A DNA stretch of 64,000 nt, taken from the NCBI RefSeq assembly GCF_037042905.1, contig NC_087251.1:14386001-14450000 (forward strand), given 5' to 3'. Below are positions 3,860-31,400 of the stretch, piece by piece (the stretch's first letter is position 1; each line of letters starts with the position of its first letter). The stretch comes from Lytechinus pictus (taxonomy: Eukaryota). The position numbers were made by a program, and so were the translations under genes. The notes below the pieces were generated by a model that saw only the letters and a program-made list of their open reading frames with translations, made no database searches and had not been told where the DNA came from.

Positions 3860-4048
3860 CACAGTAAAAAAAACACATTGTTTAAGCCTGTCACAGGTTG
3901 TTTAAACTGTTTTAAAACTTGTTTTAAAAGTTTAAACAGTTGTTTAAAAAGTCATAACATTTGTTTAAAAAGTTTTAAACAGTAGTTGTTAGAGTGACGG
4001 GCTTTAACAATTAACGTGCTTAAAATTTTAAACAGCGTGTTTACAGTG
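3860..4048. mobile_element. Small MITE, TA|CACAGTAAA...TTTACAGTG|TA, with TTTAAAC repeats
   Basis: Short TIRs, TA on both flanks. Confidence 0.55.
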
Positions 4049-6940: not shown

Positions 6941-8104
6941 CACAGCAGACTACATTCTGGGAGGCATGCCCAATAATACGATAAAGGTTTACAAAAGCAC
7001 GAAGAAGGGGTTGTTTTTTACGATCTGGTAATATTTGAGTAGAATGAAAATGGTATCAATGTTAAAGGGTTATTTATACTTCTTAAATGCATATTGGGCG
7101 TGGATTGGTTCATCCTATCAAGAAAATAGGTAATCAAAATAAAGAAAACATGACGAATTATTTAAAGGGGTGGGTCTATAATACTCTAGGCTGAAATTAA
7201 TATGATTTGAACAGATCACACAAACAAAATACTTAAATTCCATCAAAATCAGACAAGGAATAACAAAATTTTGCACCATTTCGGTCAAACATTTTCGCTG
7301 ATGATGTCATATTTCTTCTTATTTTGTTGTACTTTATTATACTAAACTATATTTATTCAAAATGTTGTCCTCCAATAATTGAAAATTGGATTGATTATAT
7401 CTATATGCACTAGCTTATAGATGGGAAAGGGGGCTGGGGCCATGTATCCCAAAAATTTCATGACCAAGAAATTAAAATAAAAAAACATTGGTATAGAACT
7501 ACATATTTATTTAACTTAATGGAATGCTTCAAATGAAATTAGAAAGAAGGAATGAGTTTAAGTTAAAGAGTGGGGCGAATTTTCAGACGTTTCTTCAATA
7601 CCCTGAGCAAGCCTGGCAAATGATATCAGATCACCTCTTATCATTTTTTATTTCTATTATTTGAAATTATATATATATTCATTTTTTTTTCTTCCAAGAA
7701 TTGACTACTGATTTTATGTGCATTGGCGTACAGACAGGGGGCCTAGAACACCCCCCCCCCAAAAAAAAAAGAGGAAAATAATGATCGAGAAAAAGGGGAG
7801 AATAAATAAGAAAAGGAAAGGATAAGGGGTGAATCATGGTATTATTCTTAAATCATTATCCATCACAACATTGGATTTTTCGCTCTCTTGCAGCTTTATA
7901 AAAAAAAAATTGCCAAATAGGGCCTACGCCAGCATAATTTGCGCACGGACATTCCGGGCCAAGAAAGTGAGCAAACTTCTATGAGATGCTCTTCAATCGG
8001 CTCTCCAAGAATTACCCCAACGAACATTAATCCCTTCTAAATGACTTGTGCCATTCTCTTGCCGCATGACCCGTCCCTTCCTCATACAGTTAACGATTCC
8101 ATCC

Positions 8105-11100
8105 CAGGGGCGTCGATTCATTTTTCCGATGGGGGGGGGGGGGAGGGGGCAAAATCATGAGTAAACTTTCCAAAGGCGCTCGATCACACAAAACAAACAC
8201 ACACATATATGCCTATATATATATTATATGACTCATGAGATAGAGACACATATCTCACCAACAAATTAATGCGTGCGCTGAAATTTCTTTATATTCTGAC
8301 CTGAAAGCTTGATATTCTAAGCATTTTTGGTACCAATGATTACGATGGGTATCTTAAAAAACAATAGGGGGGGGGGCCCGGAATTTTTTTCAGCCATATT
8401 TTCCTCGATCGGCCGCTCGAAGATGATTTTTGGTTTCTTTGAAGGGGTAGTCCTAATAGTAACTTCTTAGCTTTATTCTAATGAATAAACATTAATATAT
8501 AGTATCATTATTTATACAATGCGAGCGCGAAGCGCGAGCTAAATTTTTTTGGAAATCTTATGTATATTTTCCTAAAATTTTGAACATTCTGGGCAATGTT
8601 TGATATCCTGAAAGATAGGTATGCAAATGAATAACTATTACGAACGTGAAGCGCGAGCAGAAATGAACTGATGGAAAGCTACATGTTAAAGACTGCTTGC
8701 AGTTAGCCATGAGACGTTACATATTTCAAAAATCAAATTATGCGAGCGCGAAGCGCGAGCTGATTTTTTTATACATTTTTACCTAAGGAATGGAAATTTT
8801 AAGCACTTTTTGCAACTCAAACAGAATAGGTATGTAACTAAACAATATTGATGCAAGCGCGAAATTTCGAGATTTAGACCTACTAAACGAGACACTCTAT
8901 TCAAGTTTTGTAAATCATGAAAAGGATGAGTAAGTGGAGATCTTCCTTACATTAAAATAATGCGAGCGCAGAGCGCGAGCAGAAAGTTTTTATATACGTT
9001 TATTACTCAATATCGAAAAGGTACCTGTTAAGGACTGCTATTGCACTAAGTCATGATGACGTTACATATTTCAATAATCAAATAATGCGAGCGCGAACCG
9101 CGAGCTGAAATTTTCACATTTCTAAATAAAGAATGTAAGATTGTAATCAAATTTTGTAATCGTGAACAGGATAGGTATATAACTAAACAATTTATTGATG
9201 CGAGCGCGAAGCGCGAGCGGATAAAATCGAGATTTAGACCTAAAACGGGACACTATATTCATGTTTTGTAAATCATGAAAAGGATGAGTAATTGGAAATC
9301 TTCCGACATTAATATTGCGAGCGCAAATTTTTAATATACGTTTTGATCTAATAAAAAAATGATCTGTTAACGGCTGCTTGCAGTTAGCCCTGAAGATGTT
9401 ACATATTTCAATAATCAAAGAATGCGAGCGCGAAGCGCGGGCTAAAAATTGACATTTCTACCTGAAGAATGGACATTCTAAGAACTTTTTTGTAATCGTG
9501 AAAAGGATAAGTATGTAACTAAACAATTTTTTAGATTTAGATTTAGATTTTATTTCCGTTCAACAATTTTTTCAAAATATAATCAAAGTAACAATACATA
9601 TTCAATATAATCGATAATACAGACAAATCAATGAAATTTCGTAACAAATGTTGAATATAAATTAAACAAAACTACAATTTGTTGCAGTAATATTATCAAT
9701 GAAAAGAAACAAGAAATGAACGGAGGGACTTGCCAAGAAAAGCAAAAGCTTGTAGAGAAGGCAAGCCCCTAAACTTAGTTTCAATACTTATTATAAACAA
9801 ACTATATATATACAACTCTATACAAAAATCGAGACGGACACAGAAGACAAACTTAAAACAAGTAATCCACAAATATCAAAATAAAACGAATAAGCGACAA
9901 CAAAAATAAGAGAAAGTAATTCAAATAATAATAATTACAGTGGTAACACCAAAAAAAAGTACTTACAAAATCATAATAGGGAGGGAAAAGTGGCAATTGA
10001 TGAGAGCGCGAAGCGCGAGCGGAAAATTCGAAAATGGGACACTCTATTCATGTTTTGTAAATCATGAAAAGGATGAGTAATTGGAAATCTTCCTACATAA
10101 ATATTGCGAGCGCAAAGCGCGAGCAAAAAATTTTTGATATTGTAAAATGAAACTGGATAATGACTTAAACAGAGAACAAGCTGCATATCTGAATAAAGAT
10201 GCGCGCGCGTGTTTCAGATTTAGACCTAGAATCTGGGTGGGCATTCTAAATACCTTTTTTTATCATGAAAATCGATAAAGTGAGCGCGAAGCGCGAGCTT
10301 AGAATATTTGATATTCCGATCTGAAAAAGGTCAATTTAAGCTCTGTATTTCAGGCACTTTGTAGGAAAATTGTGAGGTGGATATGGATCACATTTAAAAA
10401 AAAGAGCTTATATGCTTTATTATTATTACTTTGAGTTTTGATATAGGACCAGGACATTCCAAGAACATTATGTCATCATATGAAAATGATGACTATATCT
10501 TCTTATTTCTATTCCTAAGCGCGAGATTGAACTTGTCGATATTCTATTCTAAAAAAGGGACAGTTTGATTCTTAAATAAGCCTTATGTGAGAGCGATAAA
10601 CTGTTAATATTATGGCCTGAAAACTGGACATTTAAAGCACTTTTGTATTTATGAATAAGATGCATGAGTTGATATATTTTCAACAATCAATGCGAGAGCA
10701 AATCGCGAGCCGAAATTTTAATATTCAGACCATAAAACAGAAAGTTTTACAGAGCACATCTTAAAAATCAGACAAAATAATGAAAGTTCGATTTTTGAGC
10801 TGAAATATGTTTTCTATGTTGACTTCAAATTTTGATATTTCAAGCTCCATATTGATATGTAAATCACCTAACAGGCAATGCGAGCGCGAAGCGCGAGCGA
10901 TTTTTTTTTATAGTGACATGAAAGATTTTAAAAATTATTTTCCTAGTCTTCCCCTCATCTTATTTTATTCACTCGTTTTCCTCTTCTTGTGTTTCCCCTT
11001 CTTTTTATTCCTCTCTTTTCCCTTCTTTTTCTTTTTTTTCTTTCTTCCCCCCTTTTTCTTTTTTTTTTGCTCCCCAATAGGGGGGCCCGGGCCCCTCGGC

Positions 11101-11126
11101 CCCCCCCCCCCCTGGATCCGCCTATG
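8105..11126. mobile_element. Composite hAT-like non-autonomous element(s) with periodic GCGAGCGCGAAGCGCGAGC motifs
   Basis: CAGGGGCG plus G-run left end; C-run plus GGATCCGCCTATG right end; internal ~110-120-bp subunits; no matching TSD, so probably composite. Confidence 0.6.
9529..9993 (-). mobile_element. 3' end of a CR1/L2-group LINE or derived SINE inserted in the hAT-like element
   Basis: (TTTAGA)n tail, AATAAA on the minus strand, stem-loop core AAAAGC..AGCTTGTAG shared with 12315-12365; interrupts a repeat subunit. Confidence 0.6.
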
Positions 11127-12164
11127 TCATCTGTTTAACAACTACTCAAAAGTTCATAAAGTAAACAGCGTTGTATAACATTGATGGGAAAAAAGAACAC
11201 GGACTGCCAAGGATACTCCAGGCAGCCACACGGACCTACATGGCAAATACACGGCAGTTACACGGACCATCCCGGATGGCTTGTCTACCCGGCAGTCCAA
11301 TGATGGCGCCGGATGTTTTTTACAGTAAAAAACTGTCGTGGTGGCCTCCCGGACGTTCAAGGACCAACACAGTACAGACCACCATGGACCTCCAAGGATG
11401 CCCAAGGCGCCAACACGGATCTCTCCCCGGATCAGATCCGGGATGGTCCGGGCTGTGACTGGGGCTTTAGATCTGATGTAAGTTTTCTTTTAGCCCGGAG
11501 TCCGCATTTAAGGCTTTCTGTGATCGAAGAAAATATACTTGTTTAGAGTCCTTTTTTAAAGTTAATGTACAAGCATTGGTGTAAACCTTTTAGAATTGAC
11601 ACTCATTTTTTCCCTTTCCAGAGTCATAAAGCTGAAACAACTTAGTCTACAGACGGAAATGGCTGATAGAGAAAAGTCTACTCTTTCGTCTCCACGTGGT
11701 TTTAAGAAAACAAAAGTTGCTTTCTTACGTAGCCGAACCATCATTTTGCCACATTGGGGGCTCCAAAAATATTTAAATAGTCAAGCTACGGATAAGGGTG
11801 GGGTACCTTCGACAGGCTCTTATGATTTAAAGTGCCTGAACGTAATTGCGTACAACATGCAGAGCAATGCCTCTTCTAACTTTTCCAAGAGGTTTCATTA
11901 ACATAAAAGTCGCTTAAATGTGCAGAAACGCCCTTTTCCCTCATATCCATCTAAGTATTATAGGCCTATACCTTTATATTGCTACGCATATTACATTCAT
12001 TTCTGCGTGCTAGTCACACCAACAAAGGCAAGGCAGGACCGATTCAAGCTATTGTACTCTCTTGAAAGGCATGCCAGCGATCGCATTGTAGTCGGTATCA
12101 ATAGTGTGACTAAGACACGGAGGCTGCTTTTTGGTGTCATTTCATCGCAATATCGAGTAATACA

Positions 12165-12414
12165 TTCAATTCAATTCAATTCAATTCAATTCATTTATTT
12201 TCTCTTTCAATCTTTTTACATTTACAATGATAGTTCAATATACATATTTACAAAATATAACATTTAAATCATTTTTCTATCATTTTTCTATCATACAATA
12301 ATACCATGAAATCGAAAGGGAAGGAGACCAACTAAAAAGCAGAGCTTGTAGGGTGAAGGCCCCCTTTTATAAGTAATTTTTTATGAATAAAAAATAAGAT
12401 AAAATAAAGAAATT

Positions 12415-12454
<40 letters not shown>

Positions 12455-13290
12455 AATAAAAAATAAACAAATAAAAATAAAAATAAATAAATAATAATAA
12501 AAATAAATGATTCAGTATACACTGTATACAGAAATCATAAAACGATTAAACATATATACAAAGAGAAATTAATAAACACATTTACATATTAAGTTCTAAA
12601 TTACATTACTTTGGGAAAAAACGATAATCTAATATGAATTCAGTAGATATTTTTTAAGTTTTCCTTTGAAATTGTGTATTGAATTACATTGTATATCTTT
12701 TGAAAAAGAATTCCATAATTTTGGACCAGTAAAAACAAATGTCTTCTGTGCAAACGATGTTCTATTCAGAGGTAAATGAAAGGAACTCGCCTGGCGAGTG
12801 AAGTGCTTATGAATTGTATCATTTTTTACAAACATATTATTAAAAGGTAACGGTAATTGTTTATTGATAAACTTGAACATTAACTGTCCGAGTTGAAAAG
12901 AATATAAATCTTTAACCTTCAAGACTTTATTTCTCAAAAACAGAATATTTGTATGTGCCCTGAATTCTGCATGACTAATAATACGAATCACTCTTTTTTG
13001 TAAAATAAAAAGTCTATTAATTTGAGAATTCGCTGCATTACCCCACGCAACAAATCCGTAATTCAAATAAGGTAAAATTAACGTTGAATACAATGATAAC
13101 AAAATATAATGGGGTAAGAAGTAGCTTAATTTTCTAATGACACCGATGTTGCGAGCAATGATTTTACAAATATTATCAATATGTGCTTTCCAAGAAAGTT
13201 TTTCGTCAATGATCAGTCCCAAAAATTTAGTAGATCGCACTCTTTGAATGACAATATCATTTAAAATTACATCTTTTGGTACACTCGTAA
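12165..13290 (-). mobile_element. 5'-truncated CR1/L2-group LINE (C-terminal ORF2 12629-13240, 3' UTR, (TTGAA)n tail)
   Basis: KFLGLIIDEKLSWKAHID...LYSTLILPYLNYG..WG...LQKRVIRII...GPKLWN; (ATTCA)n at ~12165-12195. Confidence 0.88.
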
Positions 13291-14693
13291 TCTTGTTAAA
13301 AGGTATTTACCCCTTATCTAATCAAATTAAGACATGAAAACTGTCATGAAGCATATCAATATTCTAGTCAATATTTTAAATACATCCTATTTCGTGCCGA
13401 ATGCTGATATTTTGTATTAGTTGTTGATGTTAATGATAAAACAGAAAGATATCGATGCACATGCAAATGTTTGACCAAAACATGGAAATGTTGGCATAGA
13501 TTCTCATATTTTTCAAAAAATATTTATCGGACCGTCCAGAAAACGCCTATCTCAATTATGGTGAAATGCGTATTAATTTAAGATTTTCCCCATTGTCTGT
13601 GCTAAAAATATGAAAGTAATTGATTTTCATGAAAATCAAAGATGGCCTCTATAATTGCCAATTTTGACCCCCATGGGACATGATTTGGCAAAGGGATCGA
13701 ACATCAAGATTCATTAACTAGACACTTCAGGCAATACAAGAAAGTTGGTCAAAATATATATCATGATGGTGCACGGGTGACGGGAACCCCCGATTTCCGA
13801 CTCGACTAACTCGGATAGACTACTAGTATTACTCCATAGAGGTAGATTATTTTCATCCACTTAGAACTACATGTAGTAGGTTTCATGAGCCTAATTACAA
13901 TAGGAAGGTATACGATATTCATTCGATTTTTTTTTTATATTGGTGATTGACAAAAGTGTAAGAATATAATTGAAAATCTAACACTGATTCTAGAAATGGT
14001 AACTACTGAACTTCCTTCGCCCAAATTGGGAAGATATAACAATGACTTTGGAACTATTTTTTGACTGGCGGAAGAATTAGGGCTATTTTACTGTTTCAGT
14101 TGATAAATTTGATCCCATCATAGTCCATAGTTATCTTCATAAATGGCGATTTATTTTTAAAATAGGCTGGCCACGATACCCTTTTCTGGTCAGATATGGA
14201 ATGTCAGATATATATCCTATCCAATGGTAGTAAACATTCGACCCACTAATTTCACGTTAATTTTTAATGAATTTTTTAAAGTGCCATTTCAACACACATA
14301 TGGGGAATGTTTTACGCGCGTGACATACTCTGAAGAAATAAATCATCTAGCGCCATCTCTTAGTAAAAAATAGGTAGGCACTTATGATCCAAGTTTGAAA
14401 GGAGACTCGTAAAATGACGTCAGTCTCGCCGATGAATATTCATTAGATCGTGGTCGTGCGTGTTCAATACACACTGCGTGCAGGCATGCAGATAGTTATA
14501 TGCGAGGAACTTTGGCTCCAGAGACATTTTGCAAGTTGTCAAATAACGTGTGTGTGTGTGCGTGTGTGTACCATCGGCTGGTAGTATGCCATACTGTCTA
14601 AGACTTCAAACGCGTCGGAGAGAGTGCATGGCAATTCGGTAAAACGAAGTTTCCAATACAAAGAGATAATAAAATAACACTATGTACAGTACG

Positions 14694-14850
14694 CCCGGGG
14701 GTGCCACTTACATTGACGAGTGGATACCATGCGCGACCAAAAAAAAACACGTAAAAAGGATGTCTTTTTCAATAAGAGAGGGCACGTTACGTACGTAACG
14801 TGATAGGGTGTCAAAAACACAAAAATATTGAAAAAAGGGTATCTATTTCC
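14694..14850 (+). mobile_element. Possible truncated end of a CCCGGGGG-terminated (EnSpm/CACTA-like) MITE embedded in the arm; mirrored at ~23075-23233
   Basis: CCCGGGGGTGCCACTTACATTGACGAGTGGATACC resembles a MITE terminus; present in both arms. Confidence 0.45.
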
Positions 14851-15023
14851 AGTACGTTGAGAGGCAAATGTCAGATCAGGGGAGGCAGGAGTACAATCAG
14901 GTTTTTTTAAAGGGAAGAATAGTGTAGAATAAAAGGTATTATATATACCCAAATGAGCTAGGTGAGGGAAGTGAACAATGATGTTTTTTAAAAAAAGAAT
15001 GAATATATATACCTTACCTGAAT

Positions 15024-17600
15024 ATTATGGTGAAGCCAATTTAAAAGGATCGAGGTGAGACAAGTTTCAATGGAGGTTTTAAAAAAGAATAAACTGTATT
15101 ATGGTGAAGCCAATTTAAAAGGAGGTGAGGCAAGTTTTAATGGAGGTTTTTAAAAAGAATAAACTGTATTATGGTGAAGCCAATTTAAAAGGAGGTGAGG
15201 CAAGTTTCAATGGAGGTTTTTAAAAAGAATAAACTGAATATGGTGAAGCCAATTTAAAAGGAGGTGAGGCAAGTTTCAATTGAGGTTTTTAAAAAGAATA
15301 AACTGTACTACAAATTTAAAAGGAGGCGAGGCAAGTTTCAATGGAGGTTTTTAAAAAAGAATAAACTGTACTACAAATTATGGTGAAGCCAATTTAAAAG
15401 GAGGTGAGGCAAGTTTCAATTGAGGTTTTTAAAAAGAATAAACTGTACTACAAATTTAAAAGGAGGTGAGGCAAGTTTTAATGGAGGTTTTTAAAAAGAA
15501 TAAACTGTATTATGGTGAAGCCAATTTAAAAGGAGGTGAGGCAAGTTTCAATGGAGGTTTTTAAAAAGAATACTACAAATTATGGTGAAGCCAATTTAAA
15601 AGGAGGTGAGGCAAGTTTCAATTGAGGTTTTTAAAAAGAATAAACTGTACTACAAATTTAAAAGGAGGCGAGGCAAGTTTCAATGGAGGTTTTTAAAAAA
15701 GAATAAACTGTACTACAAATTATGGTGAATTAAGCCAATTTAAAAGGAGGTGAGGCAAGTTTCAATGGAGGTTTTTAAAAAAGAATAAACTGTACTACAA
15801 ATTATGGTGAAGCCAATTCAAAATAGGAGGTGAGGAAAGTTTCAATGGAGGTTTTAAAAAAAGAATAAACTGTACTACAAATTATGGTGAAGCCATGCAA
15901 TTTAAAAGGAGGTGAGGCAAGTTTCAATGGAGGTTTTTAAAAAGAATAAACTGTATTATGGTGAAGCCAGTTTAAAAGGAGGTGAGGCAAGTTTCAATGC
16001 ATGGAGGTTTTTAAAAAGAATAAACTGTATATGGTGAAGCCAATTTAAAAGGAGGTGAGGCAAGTTTCAATGGAGGTTTTTAAAAAGAATAAACTGTATA
16101 TGGTGAAGCCAATTTAAAAGGAGGTGAGGCAAGTTTCAATGGAGGTTTTTAAAAAGAATAAACTGTATTATGGTGAAGCCAATTTAAAAGGAGGTGAGGC
16201 AAGTTTCAATGGAGGTTTTTAAAAAGAATAAACTGTACTACAAATTATGAAGCCAATTTAAAAGGAGGTGAGACAAGTTTCAATGGAGGTTTTTAAAAAG
16301 AATAAGCTGTACTAAAAATTATGAAGCCAATTTAAAAGGAGGTGAGACAAGTTTCAATGGAGGTTTTTAAAAAGAATAAACTGTATTATGGTGAAGCCAG
16401 TTTAAAAGGAGGTGAGGCAAGTTTCAATTGAGGTTTTTAAAAAGAATAAACTGTACTACAAATTTAAAAGGAGGCGAGGCAAGTTTCAATGGAGGTTTTT
16501 AAAAAAGAATAAACTGTACTACAAATTATGGTGAAGCCAATTTAAAAGGAGGTGAGGCAAGTTTCAATGGAGGTTTTTAAAAAAGAATAAACTGTACTAC
16601 AAATTATGGTGAAGCCAATTCAAAATAGGAGGTGAGGAAAGTTTCAATGGAGGTTTTAAAAAAAGAATAAACTGTACTACAAATTATGGTGAAGCCAATT
16701 TAAAAGGAGGTGAGGCAAGTTTCAATGGAGGTTTTTAAAAAGAATAAACTGTATTATGGTGAAGCGAGTTTAAAAGGAGGTGAGGCAAGTTTCAATGGAG
16801 GTTTTTAAAAAGAATAAACTGTAAATGGTGAAGCCAATTTAAAAGGAGGTGAGGCAAGTTTCAATGGAGGTTTTTAAAAAGAATAAACTGTATATGGTGA
16901 AGCCAATTTAAAAGGAGGTGAGGCAAGTTTCAATTGAGGTTTTTAAAAAGAATAAACTGTATTATGGTGAAGCCAATTTAAAAGGAGGTGAGGCAAGTTT
17001 CAATGGAGGTTTTTAAAAAGAATAAACTGTACTACAAATTATGAAGCCAATTTAAAAGGAGGTGAGACAAGTTTCAATGGAGGTTTTTAAAAAGAATAAA
17101 CTGTACTACAAATTATGAAGCCAATTTAAAAGGAGGTGAGACAAGTTTCAATGGAGGTTTTTAAAAAGAATAAACTGTATTATGGTGAAGCCAGTTTAAA
17201 AGGAGGTGAGGCAAGTTTCAATGGAGGTTTTTAAAAAGAATAAACTGTATATGGTGAAGCCAATTTAAAAGGAGGTGAGGCAAGTTTCAATGGAGGTTTT
17301 TAAAAAGAATAAACTGTACTACAAATTTAAAAGGAGGCGACGCAAGTTTCAATAGAGGTTTTTAAAAAGAATAAACTGTATTACAAATTATGGTGAAGCC
17401 AATTTAAAAGGAGGTGAGGCAATTAGTTAATGGAGGTTTTTAAAAAGAATAAACTGTATTACAAGTTATGGTGAAGGCAATTTGAGAGGAGGTGAGGCAT
17501 GTCTACAATGATTTTTTTTAAAGAATGATAAGTGTAGAATATAATTCAAATGATGAAGCCATATCTTAAGAGGTGCATGAGGCAAGTCTACAATGAGGTT
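15024..17600 (+). repeat. Tandem array of ~62-79-bp units (consensus TATGGTGAAGCCAATTTAAAAGGAGGTGAGGCAAGTTTCAATGGAGGTTTTTAAAAAGAATAAACTGTA), left arm, roughly 36 copies
   Basis: Directly visible, e.g. 70-bp period between 15101 and 15171; degenerates toward the element centre. Confidence 0.97.
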
Positions 17601-19909
17601 TCTAAAAACAATGAATAGTGAAGAAAAAGATCGCAATTGCTTTTAATAATCCACAAAATTGTGTAGTTATTTATTTCATGCAAATTGCTATTAATTGATT
17701 ATGCTCATTTGTGCATAATTAGTATACTATACCTATTCCTCTAACTCCCTAAATAAAGCTCCAAATGTTCTAATTTTTGGTTTAGAAACTCTTTGTGGTG
17801 TTCTTCGATAATGTATTTCTTGTGTTTTTACCTTTGTATTGCATTGTTTTTTTTCAACGATGCTCAGACTCTCGTAACAGCATAAAATAAATCAGTTTAG
17901 TTCAACAAAACTAAAAACAATTAGGCATTCATGAATTTTGGTTGAAAACGCATATTCCATTGACGTGGTACACAAATATCACAATTTTGAGCCATTTTTG
18001 TCTGATATGCACTTACAAATTGTTTGATAATTTTCAGAACCCAGTACCCGGGCTTCGCAAAACTGGTCTCAAAACATGCAAAAGACTTTTTTTTTAAAAT
18101 CGCAGAGCTCAGAGCCCCCCCCCCCCTGCGTAAATAGGTTAAGTTTGCATTAATTTTGAATTTTTCCATTCCCAAATACGTAATATCCCCTCCCCAAAAA
18201 TGCAATTGTCACTGAAATGGAATATACATAATATATTTTTTAATAAGCCATATTTGCAAAATAATCATCATGTCATCCTTTGTCAACAAGAAATCTGTAC
18301 ATGTCCTCTGGAAGAAAATAATACCTCGGCCGCCTATTAAATTCTAAGTTTTGATTTTGTAAGTATTTTACTTAGCAATTTGGCTGGCTTATCAAAATGC
18401 TTAAACTTGTATGCAGATCAGATCTCAGAATTTACCTTATCCAAATTGAACTAAATACTAATACCCATTGTGATGTTATAAATTTTGAGCCAAATAGTGC
18501 CAAATGTGTGAATGTATTTCTGTGCGTATCATTTTTGTATATGTAGACTTAAGTCTAGTAGATGGCTGACTTACATTTAAGCAAAATATTTAGCCAAAAA
18601 AAAAATGCAATTGAATACCAAAGATGGATAAGTATTTTACTTTTGCAAAATACTGAGTAAAATATACTTGAAATTGTGGCTTTAAGAGTAGCATTGAATA
18701 CCGGCCCTGTTCCTCATCATCATTATCATCCCACTACCACACCAGTTTCTGCAGCACAAACTTTAACTTTCATAGGTTGAGTCCATTTCAAAGCCAACAC
18801 TCTCACTTTAACTTTCTTTTTTCTCTTATAACATGACGTCCACACACTGCCAATCACATCCTTACAACACCAACTGTCAGAGGACAACAGAACTGCAGTT
18901 ACCATAGCATTACCCCCAAAACACCACTCAATTTTGAATTGATCCAAATGAAATATGACTGTGTTGCACAAAAAAAAGCTATGTAGTCATAGTAAATTTT
19001 ATTGACTTGTACATTCATAAGGCTATGCATATATTTTGAGTAATTGTTGTGTTGTCTTCAGTGATAGTTGGTACCCACTGTGCTTATGGCCAACTTTGGT
19101 AAAGGCATACATTGAATAAACTTTTATGTACTGAAAATGATGACAGAATATATTCTAAAAAAATAACATTACAAATGCATGACAGGTAATACAACATATT
19201 TCAACATGAACTATTTCACAATTTGCCAACATGACAATAAAAACTAACCTTAAAAAATAGTAGAAGCTGATGTTGGATGGAAAAGAATATTTTTGTCATA
19301 CAGCTTGAAAGACATTATATATGTATGCACTTAATGGTATCTACATGATCATTAAGTTCTTCTACACAGCTTGATATAATGTTGATTTATCCAGTTTGGC
19401 AAGTACTGTTGTGGTTGAGGCAAGGTTAATGGTTTTTCTGAATACTGAACCCCATTTTGTGTAACGAAATGAAATCTACCAGAGTTACATGACAAAGTAC
19501 AATAGAAGAAAATACCAACAGCTAGGCAAGCTTTTTTACATAAATCTTTTTTTCATATACTCTTTGATATTTTTTCTCAAAACAAATGTGGCCAGCCACC
19601 CAAATATCAACAATAAGTTGCCAGGGAAGGTTCGTAGAAAATAACCAAAATAGTAATTCAGTTTTCCAAACGCATATTTAGAATATTGGTTTATCCGAAA
19701 AAAAAAGAAATTTCTTCATACTGTCAAAATGTGAGGTTGTAAAAGTTGAAGACAAAATACAAGACTTTGATATCCGTGTTTTGCTCACTGCTAAGTAGTT
19801 GAACTACATATTACACATCGCATGCTTAAGTGAACCCCAAATCTTGTTCTCTTATTTGTTGAAGCTCTCACCAAACTTCTTCTGCATTCAATGAAGTACT
19901 AGCGAGGGA

Positions 19910-22900
19910 TATTATTCTTTTTAAAAACCTCCATTGAGGCTTGCCTCACCTCCTTTTAAATTGGCTTCACCATAATTTGTAGTACAGTTTATTCTATTTA
20001 TAAACCTCCATTGAAACTTGCCTCACCTCCTTTCAAATTTGTAGTACAGTTTATTCTTTTTAAAAATCTCCATTAAAACTTGCCTCACCTCCTTTTAAAT
20101 TGGCTTCACCATCATTTGTAGTAGTTTATTCTTTTTAAAAACGGACTTGCCTCGCCTCCTTTTAAATTGCCTTCACCATAACTTGTAATACAGTTTATTC
20201 TTTTTAAAAACCTCCATTGAAACTTGCCTCACCTCCTTTTAAATTGGCTTCACCATAATGTTTATTCTATTTATAAACCTCCATTGAAACTTGCCTCACC
20301 TCCTTTTAAATTTGTAGTACAGTTTATTTTTTTTAAAACCTCCATTGAAACTTGCCTCACCTCCTTTTAAATTGGCTTCACCATAATACAGTTTATTCTT
20401 TTCAAAAACCTCAATTGAAACTTGCCTCACCTCCTTTTAAATTGGCTTCACCATAATACAGTTTATTTTTTAAAACCTCCATTGAAACTTGCCTCACCTC
20501 CTTTTAAATTGGCTTCACCATAATACAGTTTATTCTTTTTTTAAACCTCCATTGAAACTTGTCTCAACTCCTTTTAAATTGGCTTCACCATAACTTGTAA
20601 TACAGTTTATTCTTTTCAAAAACCTCCATTGAGGCTTGCCTCACCTCCTTTTAAATTGGCTTCACCATAACTTGTAATACAGTTTATTCTTTTTAAAGAC
20701 CTCCATTGAAACTTGCCTCACCTCCTTTCAAATTTGTAGTACAGTTTATTCTTTTAAAAAACCTCAATTGAAACTTGCCTCACCTCCTTTTAAATTGGCT
20801 TCACCATAATACAGTTTATTTTTTTAAACCTCCATTGAAACTAGCCTCACCTCCTTTTAAATTGGCTTCACCATATACAGTTTATTCTTTTTAAAAACCT
20901 CCATTGAGGCTTGCCTCACCTCCTTTTAAATTGGCTTCACCATAATTTGTAGTACAGTTTATTCTATTTATAAACCTCCATTGAAACTTGCCTCACCTCC
21001 TTTCAAATTTGTAGTACAGTTTATTCTTTTTAAAAATCTCCATTAAAACTTGCCTCACCTCCTTTTAAATTGGCTTCACCATCATTTGTAGTAGTTTATT
21101 CTTTTTAAAAACGGACTTGCCTCGCCTCCTTTTAAATTGCCTTCACCATAACTTGTAATACAGTTTATTCTTTTTAAAAACCTCAATTGAAACTTGCCTC
21201 ACCTCCTTTTAAATTGGCTTCACCATAATTTGTAGTACAGTTTATTCTATTTATAAACCTCCATTGAAACTTGCCTCACCTCCTTTTAAATTTGTAGTAC
21301 AGTTTATTTTTTTTAAAACCTCCATTGAAACTTGCCTCACCTCCTTTTAAATTGGCTTCACCATAATACAGTTTATTCTTTTCAAAAACCTCAATTGAAA
21401 CTTGCCTCACCTCCTTTTAAATTGGCTTCACCATAATACAGTTTATTTTTTAAAACCTCCATTGAAACTTGCCTCACCTCCTTTTAAATTGGCTTCACCA
21501 TAATACAGTTTATTCTTTTTTTAAAACTCCATTGAAACTTGTCTCAACTCCTTTTAAATTGGCTTCACCATAACTTGTAATACAGTTTATTCTTTTCAAA
21601 AACCTCCATTGAGGCTTGCCTCACCTCCTTTTAAATTGGCTTCACCATAACTTGTAATACAGTTTATTCTTTTTAAAGACCTCCATTGAAACTTGCCTCA
21701 CCTCCTTTCAAATTTGTAGTACAGTTTATTCTTTTAAAAAACCTCAATTGAAACTTGCCTCACCTCCTTTTAAATTGGCTTCACCATAATACAGTTTATT
21801 TTTTTAAACCTCCATTGAAACTAGCCTCACCTCCTTTTAAATTGGCTTCACCATATACAGTTTATTCTTTTTAAAAACCTCCATTGAGGCTTGCCTCACC
21901 TCCTTTTAAATTGGCTTCACCATAATTTGTAGTACAGATAATTCTTTTTTTAAAACCTCCATTGAAACTTGCCTCACCTCCTTTTAAATTGGCTTCACCA
22001 TAATACAGTTTATTCTTTTTAAATACCTCCATTGAGGCTTGCCTCACCTCCTTTTAAATTGGCTTCACCATAATTTGTAGTACAGTTTATTCTTTTTAAA
22101 AACCTCCATTGAAACTTGCCTCACCTCCTTTCAAATTTGTAGTACAGTTTATTCTTTTTAAAAACCTCAATTGAAACTTGCCTCACCTCCTTTCAAATTT
22201 GTAGTACAGTTTATTCTTTTTAAAAATCTCCATTAAAACTTGCCTCACCTCCTTTTAAATTGGCTTCACCATCATTTGTAGTAGTTTATTCTTTTTAAAA
22301 ACGGACTTGCCTCGCCTCCTTTTAAATTGCCTTCACCATAACTTGTAATACAGTTTATTCTTTTTAAAAACCTCCATTGAAACTTGCCTCACCTCCTTTT
22401 AAATTGGCTTCACCATAATTTGTAGTACAGTTTATTCTATTTATAAACCTCCATTGAAACTTGCCTCACCTCCTTTTAAATTTGTAGTACAGTTTATTTT
22501 TTTTAAAACCTCCATTGAAACTTGCCTCACCTCCTTTTAAATTGGCTTCACCATAATACAGTTTATTCTTTTCAAAAACCTCAATTGAAACTTGCCTCAC
22601 CTCCTTTTAAATTGGCTTCACCATAATACAGTTTATTTTTTAAAACCTCCATTGAAACTTGCCTCACCTCCTTTTAAATTGGCTTCACCATATTCAGTTT
22701 ATTCTTTTTAAAAACCTCCATTGAAACTTGCCTCACCTCCTTTTAAATTGGCTTCACCATAATACAGTTTATTCTTTTTAAAAACCTCCATTAAAACTTG
22801 CCTCACCTCCTTTTAAATTGGCTTCACCATAATACAGTTTATTCTTTTTTAAAACCTCCATTGAAACTTGTCTCACCTCCTTTTAAATTTGCTTCGATCA

Positions 22901-22915
22901 CCATAATATTCAGGT
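19910..22915 (-). repeat. Same ~70-bp satellite in inverted orientation, right arm, roughly 43 copies with a ~970-980-bp higher-order repeat
   Basis: Reverse complement of the left array; blocks starting at 19921 and 20891 are near-identical. Confidence 0.97.
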
Positions 22916-23363
22916 AAGGTATATTCATTCTTTTTTTAAAAAACATCATTGTTCACTTCCCTCACCTAGATCATTTGGGTATATATAATACCTTTTATTC
23001 TACACTATTCTTCCCTTTAAAAAAACCTGATTGTACTCCTGCCTCCCCTGATCTGACATTTGCCTCTCAATTAACGTACTGGAAATAGATACCCTTTTTT
23101 CAATATTTTTGTGTTTTTGACACCCTTATCACGTTACGTACGTAACGTGCCCTCTCTTGAAAAAGACATCCTTTTTACGTGTTTTTTTGGTCGCGCATGG
23201 TATCCACTCGTCAATGTAAGTGGCACCCCCGGGCGTACTGTACATAGTGTTATTTTATTATCTCTTTGTATTGGAAACTTCGTTTTACCGAATTGCCATG
23301 CACTCTCTCCGACGCGTTTGAAGTCTTAGACAGCATGGCATACTACCAGCCGATGGTACACAC

Positions 23364-25065
23364 CACTGGCGTAAATCCGTGTTGATGGGTGGGGGGGATG
23401 ACTGAAATATTTTGGCTTTTTTTTTTGCAGTCATGTTTTTAGATATGCAAGGAATTGTCTTGATATGTACCGTGGGTCACGGCATTGGGGAGGGGGCACC
23501 AGCAAAATGTTTGAATCACTGAGTGAGCGCGCTCAGTTGCCAGTTATTCTGACCTAATAGAGACATTTTCTGGACAATGTCATTAAACGGATATGCATCT
23601 CACTGATCAAATAATGCGAGCGCGAAGCGCGAGCTGAATTTTTTTTATATTCACACCTAAAAAGAGACATTATAATCAAATTTGTGTAATCATGATAGGT
23701 ACCTGTCTCGCTAAACAATACGAGCGCGAAGCGCGAGCTGAAGTTTTCGTATATTTTTACCCCAAACAGCGAGATTTTGAGGAATATATTTTAGGAATCC
23801 ATTAAGAGTATGCATATCTCACCATAGTCATCTAATGCGAGTGCCAAGCGCTTGCTGGTTTATAAGAATTACATCTGAACACATGAAACACTTTTTGTAG
23901 TCATTGCAATCATGATTATCATACGCATCTCACTAATCAAATATTGCGAGCGCGAAGCGCGAGCTGAAAATTTAGATAATTCAGACCTGAAGTGGGGCAT
24001 TCTAAGGTTTCTTTCTAGGAATTAACTAGGACCATCCGTAATTCAATATCCAAATGATGCGAGCGCGAAGCGCGAGCTGAAAATTTTTGATATTCAGATC
24101 AGAAGGGACATTTTAAGGACTGATTTTAGGAATTCATGAAGAGCAGACATATTTCACCAATCCACTAATGCGAACGTAATCACGGACAGGAAATGTTTTA
24201 TATATAAGAAGACCTTAACATGGGGCAATTAATTTTTGAGTCATGAAAAAGAAGCATATGTCATTACATAAAACAATGATAACTCAAGTGCTAGGAAATA
24301 TATTTTGTTTATATTGACTTGAAAACGGGATGTTTCAGTACAACATGATTATATATCTCGTTAGCAGACAATACAAGCACCAGGAACAATGAAGACGTAG
24401 GCCCTGGGCAAATTATGTTTCATGAAGTTATGATAAAAAAATTTCTTATGTAATGCAACATAACATAATTATAATATAACATTATAATGAATAATATTTT
24501 CTTTTTTCCCACTATACGCTTCTCTTCCTTTCTCCCTCTTTTCTCCTTTTCCCCTTTTCCCCGTTTTTTTTTTTTTGGTCAGCCGATTGGGAGGGCACGT
24601 GCCCCCCATGCCCCCCCCCCCGTAGTTACGCCACTGTATGTCCATATGGCAAATACCCCTCCAATATTATCATCTTTTTTACCCCATGATGGTTTAATGG
24701 TTTTATTAGAGATTACATTAAAAAAAAATTGACATTCCATCTTAATCCCTTCCCAAAGACACCAACATTGATGAAGTGGAAGAAACGGGAGTTTCTCTTC
24801 AATGTTATGATAAGGACAGAAGTATTTCGTTTGGAAATGGTGAACTGGCTCTTTATTTGCATGTTATGATTCAATAATATTGTTTTATTTGTTAAGCGGT
24901 ATTTCAGGAAGAATTTTCACCAATAAAACAATTATCTCTTGTGATGTTTTTTTTTCTTCATTTCTTTCGTAAAAAGTGGGGGGGATGTTTGTACAGGCCA
25001 TCCCCCCCTCCTCGAAAAGTGGGGGGGATATATCCCCCCCATCCCCCCCGGGATTTACGCCAGTG
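23364..25065. mobile_element. Non-autonomous hAT-type element nested in the right Foldback arm
   Basis: 15-bp TIR CACTGGCGTAAATCC/GGATTTACGCCAGTG; 8-bp TSD GTACACAC (23356-23363, 25066-25073); the left arm shows the empty site. Confidence 0.9.
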
Positions 25066-25283
25066 GTACACACACGCACACACACACACGTTATTTGACA
25101 ACTTGTCTCTGGAGCCAAAGTTCCTCGCATATAACTATCTGCATGCCTGCACGCAGTGTGTATTGAACACGCACGACCACGATCTAATGAATATTCATCG
25201 GCGAGACTGACGTCATTTTACGAGTCTCCTTTCAAACTTGGATCATAAGTGCCTACCTAAAAAATACAGCTGATCTCGAGTGC

Positions 25284-25293
25284 GCGCATGCGC
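25284..25293. promoter_or_regulatory. NRF1-type palindromic site GCGCATGCGC in the proximal promoter/5' leader
   Basis: Exact NRF1 core 30 bp upstream of the ATG. Confidence 0.55.
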
Positions 25294-25323
25294 TCTGCAT
25301 ACATATACGGCAAGCAACGCAAC

Positions 25324-25410
25324 ATGGAGGCCTACCAAGATTACGAAGGACATGCCACAAAGCGGCAAAGAACAGATACCGGAGGAAGAGGGATACAATC
25401 TGGAGCTAGG
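25324..25410 (+). CDS. HNRNPL: hnRNP L coding exon 1 (MEAYQDYEGHATKRQRTDTGGRGIQSGAR)
   Basis: Good start context AACATGG; KRQRTD resembles the N-terminal basic motif of hnRNP L (vertebrate PKRLKTD); phase-0 donor AGG|GTATGA fits the phase-0 acceptor at 36035. Confidence 0.82.
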
Positions 25411-28400
25411 GTATGATATTCATTTTGTAGTTCAATTAGATGAATCACAAAAACCATTTACTGTGTGTGTAATTAAATTTGTAAACCTAAAGTATAAACC
25501 AAATAACGAGCGTGGACCGTGCGTGGTGGTGCTGGTACAGACTACAGACAGTGCATGGATGGTGCACTGCATGTTTCTGACTCTGCAGACCATACCGCTG
25601 GCGTTGGCGTTGCGCACAGTGCAACCTGTGATGTAGACCAAAAGCTTCGGTCTCTGTAGTGTTATGTTGGTTGTTCAGCTGAACTCCGTTGGCTTCACTC
25701 ACCAAATACAGAGACCGAAGTTCTAGCGCGATCTGTACAGGGGACTCAATGGCCATATGTCTATGTGTATTATTAATAGGGAGGACAACGAGCATCCTGG
25801 AACCCGCGACACTGCCTGCGAGGAAGCCGCAGCTCGCAAATGGTCCCAATGTCAAAGTATCTTTGCCAATGTTGATGCAAAATGAAAACACGATAAATAC
25901 AATAAAAAATCTTTTAAAAATATAAATCTTAACATCTTCAAGATAAAAACAACACTCATACTCACAAATACTATACTTGTCCCTACTATTATCGTTCGTT
26001 ATCTAAAAACTGGCCGATGCCGAAGATTTCAGTGGATTTTGTACCCAATTCCTCCCGAGTTTTCTCTCTAAACGCACGGCGAGACCAATGCGGAAGTGAC
26101 CGTGTTTTTCCACATTTTGATCATTAAATTGCTTGGGATTGGCAACTGGTAAGTCTATGAAAAATGTGGGCTAACTTCAGCGAAAGAACTTTTGATAGAG
26201 ATTCTGACGTCAAAAGTACATAGGCCCCGCCCCCTCAATCCAGAAATAATGATGAAAAAACTAAAAAAAAATATGATCCCGTGCATTTTTTGAGCTGCAC
26301 ATTATATGGTCGTTAGAAAATCGTATTCTAGTGTTATTCCTGTTGGTTTCATGCCAATACCTATCAGGGTTTTGGATTCCCAAGCAAAAAACTAAAAATG
26401 ACGTCATCCAGTGCTGTTGAATATTCACGTTTCCGACGATCTTTTCGATCACATGGTTACGATTCCTCATGAATATTGATGAATCGGTAGCGTGGCGCGA
26501 CGCTTGACTTTTACGTCTAGTCTAAAAAACAGTCCTTTTTTTGAAAATATTAAGAGAAATACAGTCGCTGCCATGTAAAGTGAGGAAAATCAATCGAATG
26601 AAAAAAATAAAAGACTGGATATTAGTCTAAATTATTTATGAATGGAATTTTCCACAACTTGAATGGAAAGACCGCATGCGAGAGATCAAATGGCACATGT
26701 TCGACCCCAAGCCTGTCAAGAGACCCAGGGAATTCCCCTGATTGACGCAGAAATTCAAAGCTTGATCGATGGGCTTCAACATTCTATTTGAAGAAATAAA
26801 ATTCAGAGAGGATGAGAGAGCGTGAGAGAGATAGGGGGGGGGGAATATCTGGGATTAAATTGCTGATAATACAATGAAACTGTTATTTAAACTAAAAAGT
26901 TATTTTTATAATTTAGCTCTAAAAAAATAGATATAATTGTTATTTGTTTAGACCTGTTTTTATTACTTTTTCTACTTGCCTTTATCAAAGATTTTCCACT
27001 GTTGCTTTTACTCTGCTTGACTCATTTTTTATATTTTATTTTCTATTTTTTTTTTTTTTTTGGGGGGGGGTGTAAATTGTTACCTAGAGGTATGCAAATC
27101 TGGGCGTATCTTCTGTGATGAACTTGCACCAGCTCCACCATTCCACCTGGGCAGCTTCCTCGTTGGAGTAAAAGAATAAATATATGTCTTCGTGGAGACA
27201 AAAACTGCTGCATTTGATATGATAAACAAAAGAATATGCCTTTAATGTCATAAAGACATTGATATCTTTGCAATACGCCACAGCAGGCATTGTTGCACGT
27301 GTTGCACTGCACCGTATCGTATTTGATTTGATGAATGAAATGAAAATAAGAACGGGTTTCATGACCGTGAACCAAAGGGCACAGAGTAACTTGAACTTGT
27401 AAATGGGGAAATTCCACTCAAACATAAAAGAGTATTCTAAGCATAAAACTGAAATAATTGATATGTTTGATACAGTGCTATATTGTTATGGATGTTTATG
27501 ATTTAGAGGTAAAATTAATGTTTATGATATAGAGGTAAATTATGTTTGTTTCTACTGATACTTTTACCGATGTGTTCAAGTCACCCCCATTAATAAATGA
27601 ACTTTCAAACTTTAACGATGAAAACAAGACCCAACTCGTCTGGCATTTCTCATCATGGATCTCCGCAACTTAGACAGAAGAGCGCAAATTTGTTCAGTTT
27701 TTTTTAATTTTCCGGTAAAAGGAGCACTCATCACAAGTTCTATTTATTATATTAGTTTGATCAGTACATTTTCCAGAATACATAACATTAATTATTTGCA
27801 TGATTCGTTTCAAGAAGTTCATTTTTTCATTTTTTTTCAAAATTTCGACGTGATAATACATTTAATCAATGGCCAAGGACCTGGATTGGAAGAAGTTATC
27901 GGCACGTGCCAAGTTTTTAAGTTTTACTAGGTGAGTACTAAAAAAAATTGTACAGTGGGAATTGGAAGCAAGTTTCAGGACATGTTGCTGATGAAATAAA
28001 AATGAGGTGTAATGAGGCTAATCAGTATTATAAATATTATGTAAAAAATAAAAGTAAACTAGATTCATTTATTTTTAATGGCTGTTACGTTTAAAAAAGG
28101 GGGAAAAAATATTTATAATTACTAAAAATAATATCCTAAAATTGGCAACGGCATGTCATGACTGTGGCTAAGGCCGGTCGTCTAGTACCGTATATGCAGT
28201 GCATCAGTACCGGGTGCGCTGGCCGTGGCATGTCCGTGGCTACGTTCGGAGTTCTGACGGAGAAGAAAAGATGGAAATAACTTCCACCAAAAATATGATC
28301 TAGAAGTCGGATATGTCAAATGATCATCATTTTATAGGTATGAAATATGAATCATCGTTTATTTTTAAAGTAAATCGTAAATTTCTATTTATGGGGAGAG

Positions 28401-31400
28401 TTTTACTTTTTAGAATGCATTTTTCGTAAATAACGTCTCGTGCACAAGCTACCACAGACTACGAGCCGGGCTGCAGCGGCAAATTTAAAATTGAATATTA
28501 ATTTAAGGAGGTCGTTCGAAACTAGCTATTCATCGACCATTTTACGTGACAACTAGCTTCGGGGAAGTTAGGGGGCTGAATCGGTTATCTCTGTCCCTTT
28601 CTGGTCTCACAAAGGCCATAGTTTGACACTTAATATCTTCACTTTTTGGAAACCTTTGGAACTGGGAGTTGGTATGTTTGCTTTGATTTTGTTTTCTCTT
28701 TCATGTCATTGTAAATAAAAATGTGAAGACGTTCAAATAAAAATTTTAGGATTTCAATTTGTCCACCCTATCCAGGTTTGGATAAAACAGGGCAGTGAAG
28801 TTGCGCGACAGCTGAGGTAAGTCACTGTTTTTGTTCCTTTTAACTTGATTTTCCCTGTTTTTTGGCATTCAATGCCAAGAGGGAATATTAATTTGCATTT
28901 CGGTCGCTTTAGTTTTCAAAAGTTTGATTCATTAAAGACAAAAATTGAAGAGCCCCGACGGGGGGATTTTGCATTGTAAGTCCCCTAATGGTGGCTGCAC
29001 GATAGCGAGCCGTCTGTATGAGGAGAAATTAAAAAAATTAAAAAATGTTAAAAAACTCCTCGAAACAGACGGCTGTCAGCTGTCTACCTGTGATGCTGTG
29101 TGTGTGACTGTGGACAGTGTGGTGAAAAGTCTTTAAAATATCCTTTTTGTAAAAAAATATAACTCAGTTCCATTCATTTATGATTTTTTATTATTAAGTA
29201 GGGGTTCATTTTTTTTGTATTCACTGGAGTGCAGAATGGAACCTCAAAAACGAAAAGTTCTGTTGCGATACCTCTCGCTCTCCATCTTTCAAATTCAAAA
29301 CAAAATGGCCGATCGAGACCGAGGCTATATTTTGTTTTTTTGAGGTTCCAGTCTGTGCCTCGATGTCAGGATTTGTGTGTCACTATAGACCTTCATCCAT
29401 ATAATCGTGGTACATGTAAGTGCGTAATTTCTGTTTCCACATTTTATAAAGATTACTATTGTATTGAGATCCCAATCTACCCCAGTCCTGTGTCTCCCTC
29501 GTTTTGCACGGTCGACTCCTGGGTTCCGTTCGCGGGCCGGAGCTCCCTGGGTTATATGTAGGTTAACATTTTTCTCTGTTACTACTTCCTGTGTGCGGAA
29601 ATAAGGCTGGCAATGTTTGGCTTATTCTCTCTTTTTTGGGGGAAACAAATGCTTGATTTTTTTACATTATTTTTTTTCCATTATAACTATTCATCATATA
29701 GCTTGGTAAATTGAAGTCTAAGTATTTTTTCTAAATTAAAAGTAGAAATTGAAAATGAAAATATTCTTGAAATTTTACTTTCCAACAAACGCAAGTTGCA
29801 CAGTAGATATTGGATCTAGACTACTCGATTACTCAAAATAATGAAAATCAGTTATTTGTAGACAAAATAGGCCTACACAATCAATTAGTTAATCCATTAA
29901 TCTACAGAAAGAAAAAAAAAATGTTCCTCAAACAGATTTTCAAAGTTACTTAAAATATAAAGTAATGCTGAAGAGAATATTCCAGAAAAAGGAAGGTTAG
30001 CATGAGAAATTTTACATTTTAAGCTTACATATATATATCTTTTTTTTTTTTTTTTATATCACCTTTATTCAAAACAAAACAAAGGGAAGTTGCAAACAAT
30101 GAAAATAAGTCCAGGTTACTCGTTTTTTTAGGACGAAGTACAGGACTAATAAAATAATTACAGATATACAATATATAACATATCACAATCAAATTTACAT
30201 AAAACGATTATACATTGTACATTGATGATTGCAGAAAAGAAAATTGAAATAGATCAAGCACACACCCTTACAGCTGAAATGAAGAGAGGATAGAGGGGAG
30301 ATAGAAAGAGTGAACTTGATGAAGAGAAATAGGAGGAGGAAAAAGTGTGACGAGCAAAAAGAAGGGGGGAAACAGGATAAAGGGGAAGGCAGAGAAGGAG
30401 AATGAAGAAAAAGAGGGATAAGAAGAAGTAAGGGAGTGCAATACAAAGTTTTGTGAATAAGATATTGCATTATTGGCATATAATTTACTTTACAAAAATC
30501 ATCTACCTACTTATACATCCAGAAGACTAGATGAGCTGACAAGATAGTGGAAAGGTGAAGATAGGGAAATAGTAGAGGGAGAGAGAGAGAAAGAGAAAAA
30601 GAGGGTTGAGAGAAAGAGGGGAGGAAGAGTGGAAAGGTGAGTGAAAGAAGAGAAAAGAGAGAAGAAGCCTTCCCGTACACATGGTACATGTCGTGATTTC
30701 TCGATCTAAAAGATTCATATCTGTCCATTGCGGCTCTGCCCGAGCATTGAAGATGACATAAGACCCCACAAGAGCTAGTTTGCTTATCTTACGAATGGTG
30801 TCCTTACATACTCTACTATTTACAAGAGTATGGCCTCCTGTCAACGACAAGGCTGTTTGCCGATGATTGTGTCATTTACACTTCTGGCACAAATTCTAAT
30901 GACTTTCAAATCCTCCAAGACGATCTGTCAAAACTAGAAGAGTGGCAGAATAAATGGGCCATGTCCTTCAATCCAGCCAAATGTGTCATCATGAAAATAC
31001 CATCCAAGGCAGTACAGATTCCAACAGAAAGAGATTACACCTTCTGTGGCCAAAAACTACAAGAAGTGTCTACATGCTCTTACCTTGGTGTTGAAATGGA
31101 TAACAGGATGCGCTGGGACGCCCAGATCAACAAAGTCTGCTCCAAAGCTTCCAGAGTACTCGGTTTCCTGAGAAGGAACTTTTGGTCTGCTCCCAAGGAA
31201 ATAAAACAACTTTCCTACCAAACGTTGGTGAGACCAATCCTGGAATACGCCTCCCCTGCATGGGATCCCCATTACAAGAAGGATACCCAGAAAATAGAAG
31301 CCATTCAGAGAAAGGCAGCTCCTTTCTGTATGGGGAACTACAGACAAACCAGTAGCGTCACAACCATGTTACGGGCCTTAGAATGGGACTCATTGGAAGA

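Follow-up and report, generated by a model that had tools for sequence, protein, structure and literature searches.

Structure of the element

A gene-less element of 9.2 kb, likely a non-autonomous Foldback-type transposon moved by a Mutator transposase, probably landed inside the promoter of the splicing-regulator gene hnRNP L in Lytechinus pictus, with the main transcription start likely kept. The element lies in a 64-kb stretch of contig NC_087251.1 (assembly GCF_037042905.1, positions 14,386,001 to 14,450,000), hereafter the window, and all coordinates below are positions in the window. The most plausible course of events is that a transposase of the Mutator family, encoded elsewhere in the genome, mobilised the element, which would have come to rest with an upstream motif on one side and the core promoter on the other. 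A CTCF-like motif that had stood about 20 bp upstream of an NRF1-like site would thereby have been moved to a distance of about 10.9 kb, and the insertion may have been tolerated because the core promoter lies downstream. The features of the locus are as follows.

14348..14363, + strand: promoter-like segment of the left flank, which likely adjoined the hnRNP L core promoter until the element inserted
14364..14372, + strand: target-site duplication of 9 bp, TAAAAAATA, left copy
14373-25257: whole element, 10,885 bp, flanked by TAAAAAATA on both sides
14373..15050, + strand: left outer arm, non-tandem, with the tip, a GT microsatellite, an abundant-repeat fragment and, innermost, degenerate units
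15023..17640, + strand: left satellite array, 34 anchored units of 62-82 bp plus degenerate edge units
17641..19890, no strand: non-coding centre of about 2.3 kb, boundaries approximate
19890..22895, - strand: right satellite array, 43 anchored units
22871..23363, - strand: inner part of the right outer arm, 95% identical to the left arm with gaps counted
23364..25065, no strand: nested non-autonomous hAT-like insertion, 1702 bp, with perfect 15-bp inverted ends CACTGGCGTAAATCC
25066..25257, - strand: gene-facing tip of the right arm, with TGACGTCA at 25208-25215 and ATGAATATTCAT at 25187-25198
25258..25266, + strand: right copy of the 9-bp duplication TAAAAAATA, at a junction that one contig of run X4 crosses
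25284..25293, + strand: palindrome GCGCATGCGC, which reads RMR like the S. purpuratus model and likely predates the insertion
25324..25410, + strand: hnRNP L coding exon 1 (MEAYQD...SGAR), with an in-frame splice to exon 2 at 36035

The preliminary description of this DNA, made from the letters alone, had reported a perfect 9-bp target-site duplication and GG...CC ends. Both are present: the duplication stands at 14364-14372 and 25258-25266, and the termini read GGTAGG...CCTACC. The 9-mer occurs seven times in the 64 kb, and the chance of a match at a fixed place is 4.5e-5 to 1.1e-4. The duplicated 9-mer starts and ends with TA, which permits an alternative reading with arms extended by 2 bp and a duplication of 5 bp; more bases are explained under the 9-bp reading.

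When aligned over 668 columns, the outer arms differ by three substitutions, eight indels of 1-7 bp and one gap of 1710 bp. The earlier account of outer arms of about 650 bp with few differences does not hold as worded, since the right arm is also split by the 1702-bp insertion, which that account had missed; without it the element measures 9175 bp. The earlier figures of about 36 and 43 inverted units of about 70 bp were borne out: there are 34 anchored units on the left (34.1 copies by Tandem Repeats Finder) and 43 on the right, plus the degenerate edge units. The left tip of about 200 bp has a GC content of 0.46 and an observed/expected CpG ratio of 1.05, with the palindromes TGACGTCA at 14415 and ATGAATATTCAT at 14432; the ratio for the right tip is 1.04. 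We take TGACGTCA to be a cAMP response element (CRE).

The centre had been described as carrying no transposase reading frame, and this was confirmed: its longest stop-to-stop frame is 95 amino acids, and a Pfam scan of all 37 frames of at least 35 amino acids returned a sole match, to DUF7791, below threshold (17 bits against 28.1). A search of 12000-28000 against Rfam gave no match, and the centre, considered as a possible Pack-MULE, held neither a Pfam match above the cut-off nor an Rfam match. One 150-bp piece of it (17926-18074) is 72% like 41227-41381 in an hnRNP L intron, on the opposite strand, and is probably a dispersed repeat. The long modular terminal inverted repeats (TIRs) with tandem repeats, the target-site duplication and the non-coding middle together give the locus the structure of a Foldback element.

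Read support and independence of the two arms

Among 24 sequencing runs, four were compared with the window over 22950-27000: X1, X4 and X21 from organism A, and X9, a DNA run, from organism B. X4 was guessed to be RNA, and X21 is raw stranded RNA, of which about 6% of the run was read. One X4 contig covers 25230-25411 with a single differing letter before running on into exon 2, and therefore takes in the final 28 bases of the arm together with the duplication, the promoter and exon 1. Position 25365 is T in all four runs and G in the window. Since X4 carries the T, it does not represent the window's haplotype; at least two haplotypes carry the right junction, and the insertion is not private to the window.

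The two satellite arrays evolved separately. Each arm has 23 distinct unit types among its complete units (33 on the left, 42 on the right), and only two types are common to both, each of them outermost. All eight diagnostic unit variants, which were chosen by eye, are private to one arm. Higher-order duplications in the right array are near-exact, with offsets of 970-1190 bp; those in the left array have offsets of about 800 and 1150 bp.

The element is real and is not a fold-back artefact of the assembly. A fold-back error would yield mirror copies, and the private unit variants therefore argue against it. Suspicion could arise from the long and near-identical inverted arms, from the near-exact 970-1190-bp duplications of the right array, which could include mis-expanded units, and from the want of reads at the left junction. 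However, the arms differ in substitutions, indels and private unit variants, one of them holds a nested insertion flanked by a separate duplication, a direct 9-bp duplication is present, an independent contig crosses the right junction, and an outgroup protein model matches both flanks, so that an artefact accounting for the whole structure is barely conceivable. The exact satellite unit counts are less certain than the structure and may be off.

The probably interrupted promoter of hnRNP L

In a tblastn comparison the gene lies on the + strand, beginning at 25324 and ending near 57085. The exon at 45003-45275 matches L. pictus hnRNP L at 99%, and in the parts compared the window follows L. 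pictus rather than L. variegatus at differing positions. With the start codon at 25324, 66 bases separate it from the end of the element, as had been described, and the identity of the gene is established by protein match.

The Strongylocentrotus purpuratus hnRNP L models P0003 and P0010 carry an extension, MAPSTGKAYKVKRMRLSFSSSN, ahead of the conserved MEAYQ. Its RMR aligns with 25285-25293 in the right flank, within GCGCATGCGC, a palindrome that we take to be NRF1-like. On the other side of the element, the left flank at 14350-14370 reads APSLSKK, against APSTGKA at residues 2-8 of P0003; the score of this match is equalled by 11 of 127,960 six-frame windows, and the chance of such a match within 30-100 bases of the duplication is 0.003-0.009. 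Read from the duplication, the right flank gives KKY, against KAY in S. purpuratus. The distance between the matched stretches is 33 bases in S. purpuratus, against 41 when the two flanks are joined. We read the N-terminal extension as a mis-extended model that appears to translate a piece of the uninterrupted promoter. Because the P0003 extension matches both flanks, the displaced segment likely once adjoined the gene; the earlier proposal that the element separates an older upstream segment from hnRNP L thus gains moderate evidence.

The displaced left-flank segment (14348..14363) resembles a CTCF motif. Available parts of two reports describe CTCF motifs as enriched at domain boundaries and non-dynamic elements in echinoderms (PMC13317027) and as tending to lie near start sites across bilaterians (10.64898/2026.10.19.760054). 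Inspection by eye of 3500-14363 and of the list of open reading frames, with Pfam applied to one frame, gave no evident gene in the left flank that could share a two-way promoter with hnRNP L.

Raw RNA reads of X21, all on one strand, reach a depth of 2 at 25310, 35 at 25356, 42 at 25365 and 51 at 25378. This climb past 25310 indicates that most transcripts begin downstream of the element, although no sharp start site was found in these reads. The core promoter thus appears intact, and the main start site was likely kept.

An alternative is that the right tip now drives hnRNP L, either as a promoter that reads outward or as an activator upstream of the gene, replacing the displaced motif. The tip is rich in CpG, with a perfect TGACGTCA palindrome 109 bp ahead of the start codon, the X4 contig links its last 28 bp to the spliced exons 1-2, and contigs of both X4 and X1 show the window's letter at 25207. 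A precedent is found in maize, where Mu places a Mutator-type end by the 5' region of a gene and promoter activity has been demonstrated; the available part of that study reports outward transcripts from Mu ends in 20 of 33 alleles (10.1101/2023.06.05.543741). However, the nature of X4 as RNA is a guess, its intron contigs have depths of 2.9-25, its contig is stitched from many reads, and DNA or pre-mRNA could account for the upstream part. In X21 there are two reads at 25310, and all ten reads at 25207 carry another letter, pointing to another copy or allele. We therefore regard promoter activity of the tip as unlikely, and retain transcription from a preserved downstream start.

A bolder extension of this idea holds that a Mutator-type foldback of Lytechinus homes to housekeeping promoters beside a CTCF-like motif, that its CpG-rich, CRE-bearing tip takes over from the displaced motif, so that at hnRNP L the 10.9-kb element would have split and rewired a promoter layout shared with Strongylocentrotus, and that an empty allele possibly still segregates and offers a natural experiment; this seems to us quite unlikely.

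Several observations weigh against the reading of a Mutator-moved Foldback that displaced an upstream motif and spared the start site. The RNA depth was taken from about 6% of a single run, in which no sharp start is visible. The outgroup match covers four of seven residues, was found post hoc and holds at the protein level only. The left junction is without read support, reads having been compared over 22950-27000. As foldbacks occur in several superfamilies, the assignment to Mutator depends on the lengths of the TIRs and of the duplication in one copy. No transposase was found in the window and the metagenome contigs, nor any further full-length copy flanked by a separate 9-bp duplication.

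The value of the element lies in its site: in this laboratory sea urchin it probably breaks up the proximal promoter of hnRNP L, a conserved splicing regulator, between motifs that are apparently adjacent in Strongylocentrotus. This site would allow a direct test of the role of a promoter-proximal CTCF-like motif in an echinoderm, and of whether an animal Mutator-type end can substitute for host promoter sequence, as in maize. Gene models and the design of guides and reporters at the hnRNP L locus depend on the haplotype.

Possible segregation and age of the insertion

Within the host species the insertion may be recent and still segregating alongside an empty allele. Both duplications are perfect, and the X9 promoter contig of organism B stops aligning at 25276, with 12 unlike letters. 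The depth of the X9 bin 25262-25397 (53.6) equals that of this contig alone (59.7 x 122/136), which implies that no contig joins tip and promoter in organism B; nothing else in X9 covers 25262-25275. This is a weak sign that organism B is without this insertion. On the other side, X4 contains the right junction and its exon 1 differs at 25365, so that at least two haplotypes carry the insertion, and the arrays have diverged and duplicated separately, though possibly before landing here. No empty allele was listed in the three runs of organism A, in which most loose ends were not shown. Taken together, these observations leave a recent segregating allele a real possibility, but one that we rate below even.

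The inverted arms of DNA transposons are not re-copied at insertion, and an age estimate from arm identity was rejected for this reason. The preliminary description had called the element young; this is not supported, given that arm identity yields no age, that the junction is shared by another exon-1 allele and that related ends are abundant in a second organism.

Classification and related elements

Two hallmarks of Mutator-like elements (MULEs), TIRs longer than 100 bp and target-site duplications of 8-10 bp, as set out in the available part of one account (PMC5499845), are found in this single copy. Its satellite-filled TIRs, 9-bp duplication and lack of a coding frame support, at the level of sequence, the earlier classification as a non-autonomous Foldback-type element with Mutator-like hallmarks.

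Mobilisation by a non-Mutator transposase, P/Galileo-like or other, was also considered. Foldback structure arises in more than one superfamily according to the parts of two reports available to us (PMC4079207, PMC3169594), and the boundary of the duplication is ambiguous by 2 bp. Nevertheless, the 9-bp reading explains nine of nine flanking bases and falls within the MULE range, and most foldbacks are assigned to Mutator in the former source (PMC4079207), making another transposase very unlikely.

TU elements of S. purpuratus are sea-urchin foldbacks with modular long inverted ends, short tandem repeats outermost and 8-bp duplications. The present element departs from this layout, its outer 650 bp being non-tandem and its duplication 9 bp.

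It is instead a new member of the known Tetris/Rehavkus/Foldback layout, and a clean example of it. Tetris of Drosophila virilis, as described in the available part of the report (PMC4079207), likewise has a non-tandem outer flank followed by a tandem array within a long TIR, a non-coding middle and 8-10-bp duplications, with no autonomous copy found there and Mutator assigned by inference; its repeat unit shares a short stretch with the flank, resembling the likeness of tip and unit seen here. The unit is about 70 bp here against 220 in Tetris, and the arms are about 3.3-3.7 kb against up to 1.7 kb. The present element further differs from Tetris, as far as that description goes, in having no separate inner TIR domain, a nested second element and a promoter position; the two are likened by description only.

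Rehavkus and Rehavkus-like elements have a 9-bp duplication, long inverted ends and variable numbers of satellites (10.1101/2024.12.02.626372, PMC6446971), with up to 50 monomers in T. castaneum (10.1101/2024.12.02.626372), according to the parts available. A 9-bp duplication and long TIRs with subterminal tandem repeats are found here as well. However, the hosts named for Rehavkus are arthropods and annelids, and it is defined by a PHD-finger transposase, whereas the present element is known from a non-coding copy. Muta1 of Aedes aegypti (PMC5499845) and Tm1 of Meloidogyne (PMC3169594) are, in the parts of these reports available, Foldback-type MULEs with subterminal repeats like those here, and Tm1 also has 9-bp duplications and copies with nested insertions, as here (PMC3169594). 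Both differ in their much shorter ends and repeats and in that an autonomous partner is known. A literature search gave no published description of this family, although Repbase, Dfam or supplements may hold one.

Allowing three mismatches, the tip pattern occurs in the window only at the two ends of the element, and neither the tip nor the satellite pattern had a match in the metagenome contigs. In X9, the summed contig depth, which is no copy number, reaches 184,405 in the tip bin, while single-copy bins nearby have 26-181; it is about 1957 at 23268 and 39 at 22981. These depths suggest that in a relative the shared tip is abundant and the satellite-armed form rarer. Arm pieces with differing letters and high summed depth were found in X1, X21 and X9, as fragments rather than full copies. 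Exon 1 of organism B has a Thr-to-Ala change seen in L. variegatus proteins. The family extends beyond this species.

Origin of the satellite arms and the nested insertion

The satellite appears to have grown arm by arm from a copy of the transposon's own tip. Tip bases 13-45 resemble the satellite unit, without change of orientation, at an alignment score of 30. Of 2000 shuffled units, 0.4-0.9% do as well when the tip is taken as 60-200 bases long, and 2.5% when it is taken as 40 bases; past the first three, no 40-base window of the outer arm scores above 18 against the unit. The 70-bp unit would thus have arisen when a subterminal stretch of the tip was duplicated, after which each array would have grown on its own, through unequal exchange or slippage. 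The units may supply additional transposase-binding sites; in Muta1, more subterminal repeats give stronger transposase binding and excision, according to the available part of that study (PMC5499845). No stable fold was found for the unit itself (z 0.56). The right arm holds, at 23082-23233, a piece of a different and far more abundant repeat, marked by a depth spike and loose ends in all four runs; a piece of it is also present in the left arm, which suggests lengthening of an arm by capture, possibly followed by copying to the other end.

The hAT-like element of 1.7 kb would have inserted later, in the right arm, 192 bp from the end of the larger element. Its 8-bp duplication GTACACAC lies at 23356-23363 and 25066-25073 and is a single copy in the left arm. 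The 8-bp duplication and short TIRs agree with a hAT-like origin, 8 bp being the predominant hAT duplication size in the available part of one source (PMC5499845). Of the six frames of at least 70 amino acids overlapping the insertion, three were compared with Pfam and gave no match. An X1 contig over 23205-23363 has four differences in 159 bases, and its alignment ends exactly at the nested insertion; it thus represents a copy or allele of the element without that insertion.

The nested element contains a transposon-like end at about 24612-24636, and 23467-24636 appears to be a second transposon inside it, with the right end intact and the left end truncated. Repeats of the GCGAGCGCGAAGCGCGAGC type, related to this inner transposon, also occur at 8500-10900 and about 62000-63600.

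Gene models and other repeats at the locus

The newer L. pictus RefSeq models XP_063958068.1 and XP_063958069.1 (25352-25618, 29080-29121) have their start within exon 1 but in a different frame, and run on into intron 1. They do so despite an intact canonical donor and acceptor, possibly as a mis-annotation beside the insertion. Older L. pictus models begin MRNAYIYGKQRN-MEAYQ, and the window reads MRSAY....

A very abundant repeat lies in intron 1 at 25534-25805, about 200 bp past exon 1, with a depth spike in all four runs; mobile DNA is thus found on both sides of exon 1. Two copies of one repeat with 192/163-bp tandem units occur at 32595-33238 and 54559-55365, in different hnRNP L introns. 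Fragments of reverse transcriptase of the long interspersed nuclear element (LINE) type are present in intron 1 at 30757-31668 (+ strand) and 32026-32559 (- strand), with matches to RVT_1 and zf-RVT. A further LINE-type reverse-transcriptase fragment, recognised by eye and with no Pfam match, lies at 12629-13306 on the - strand.

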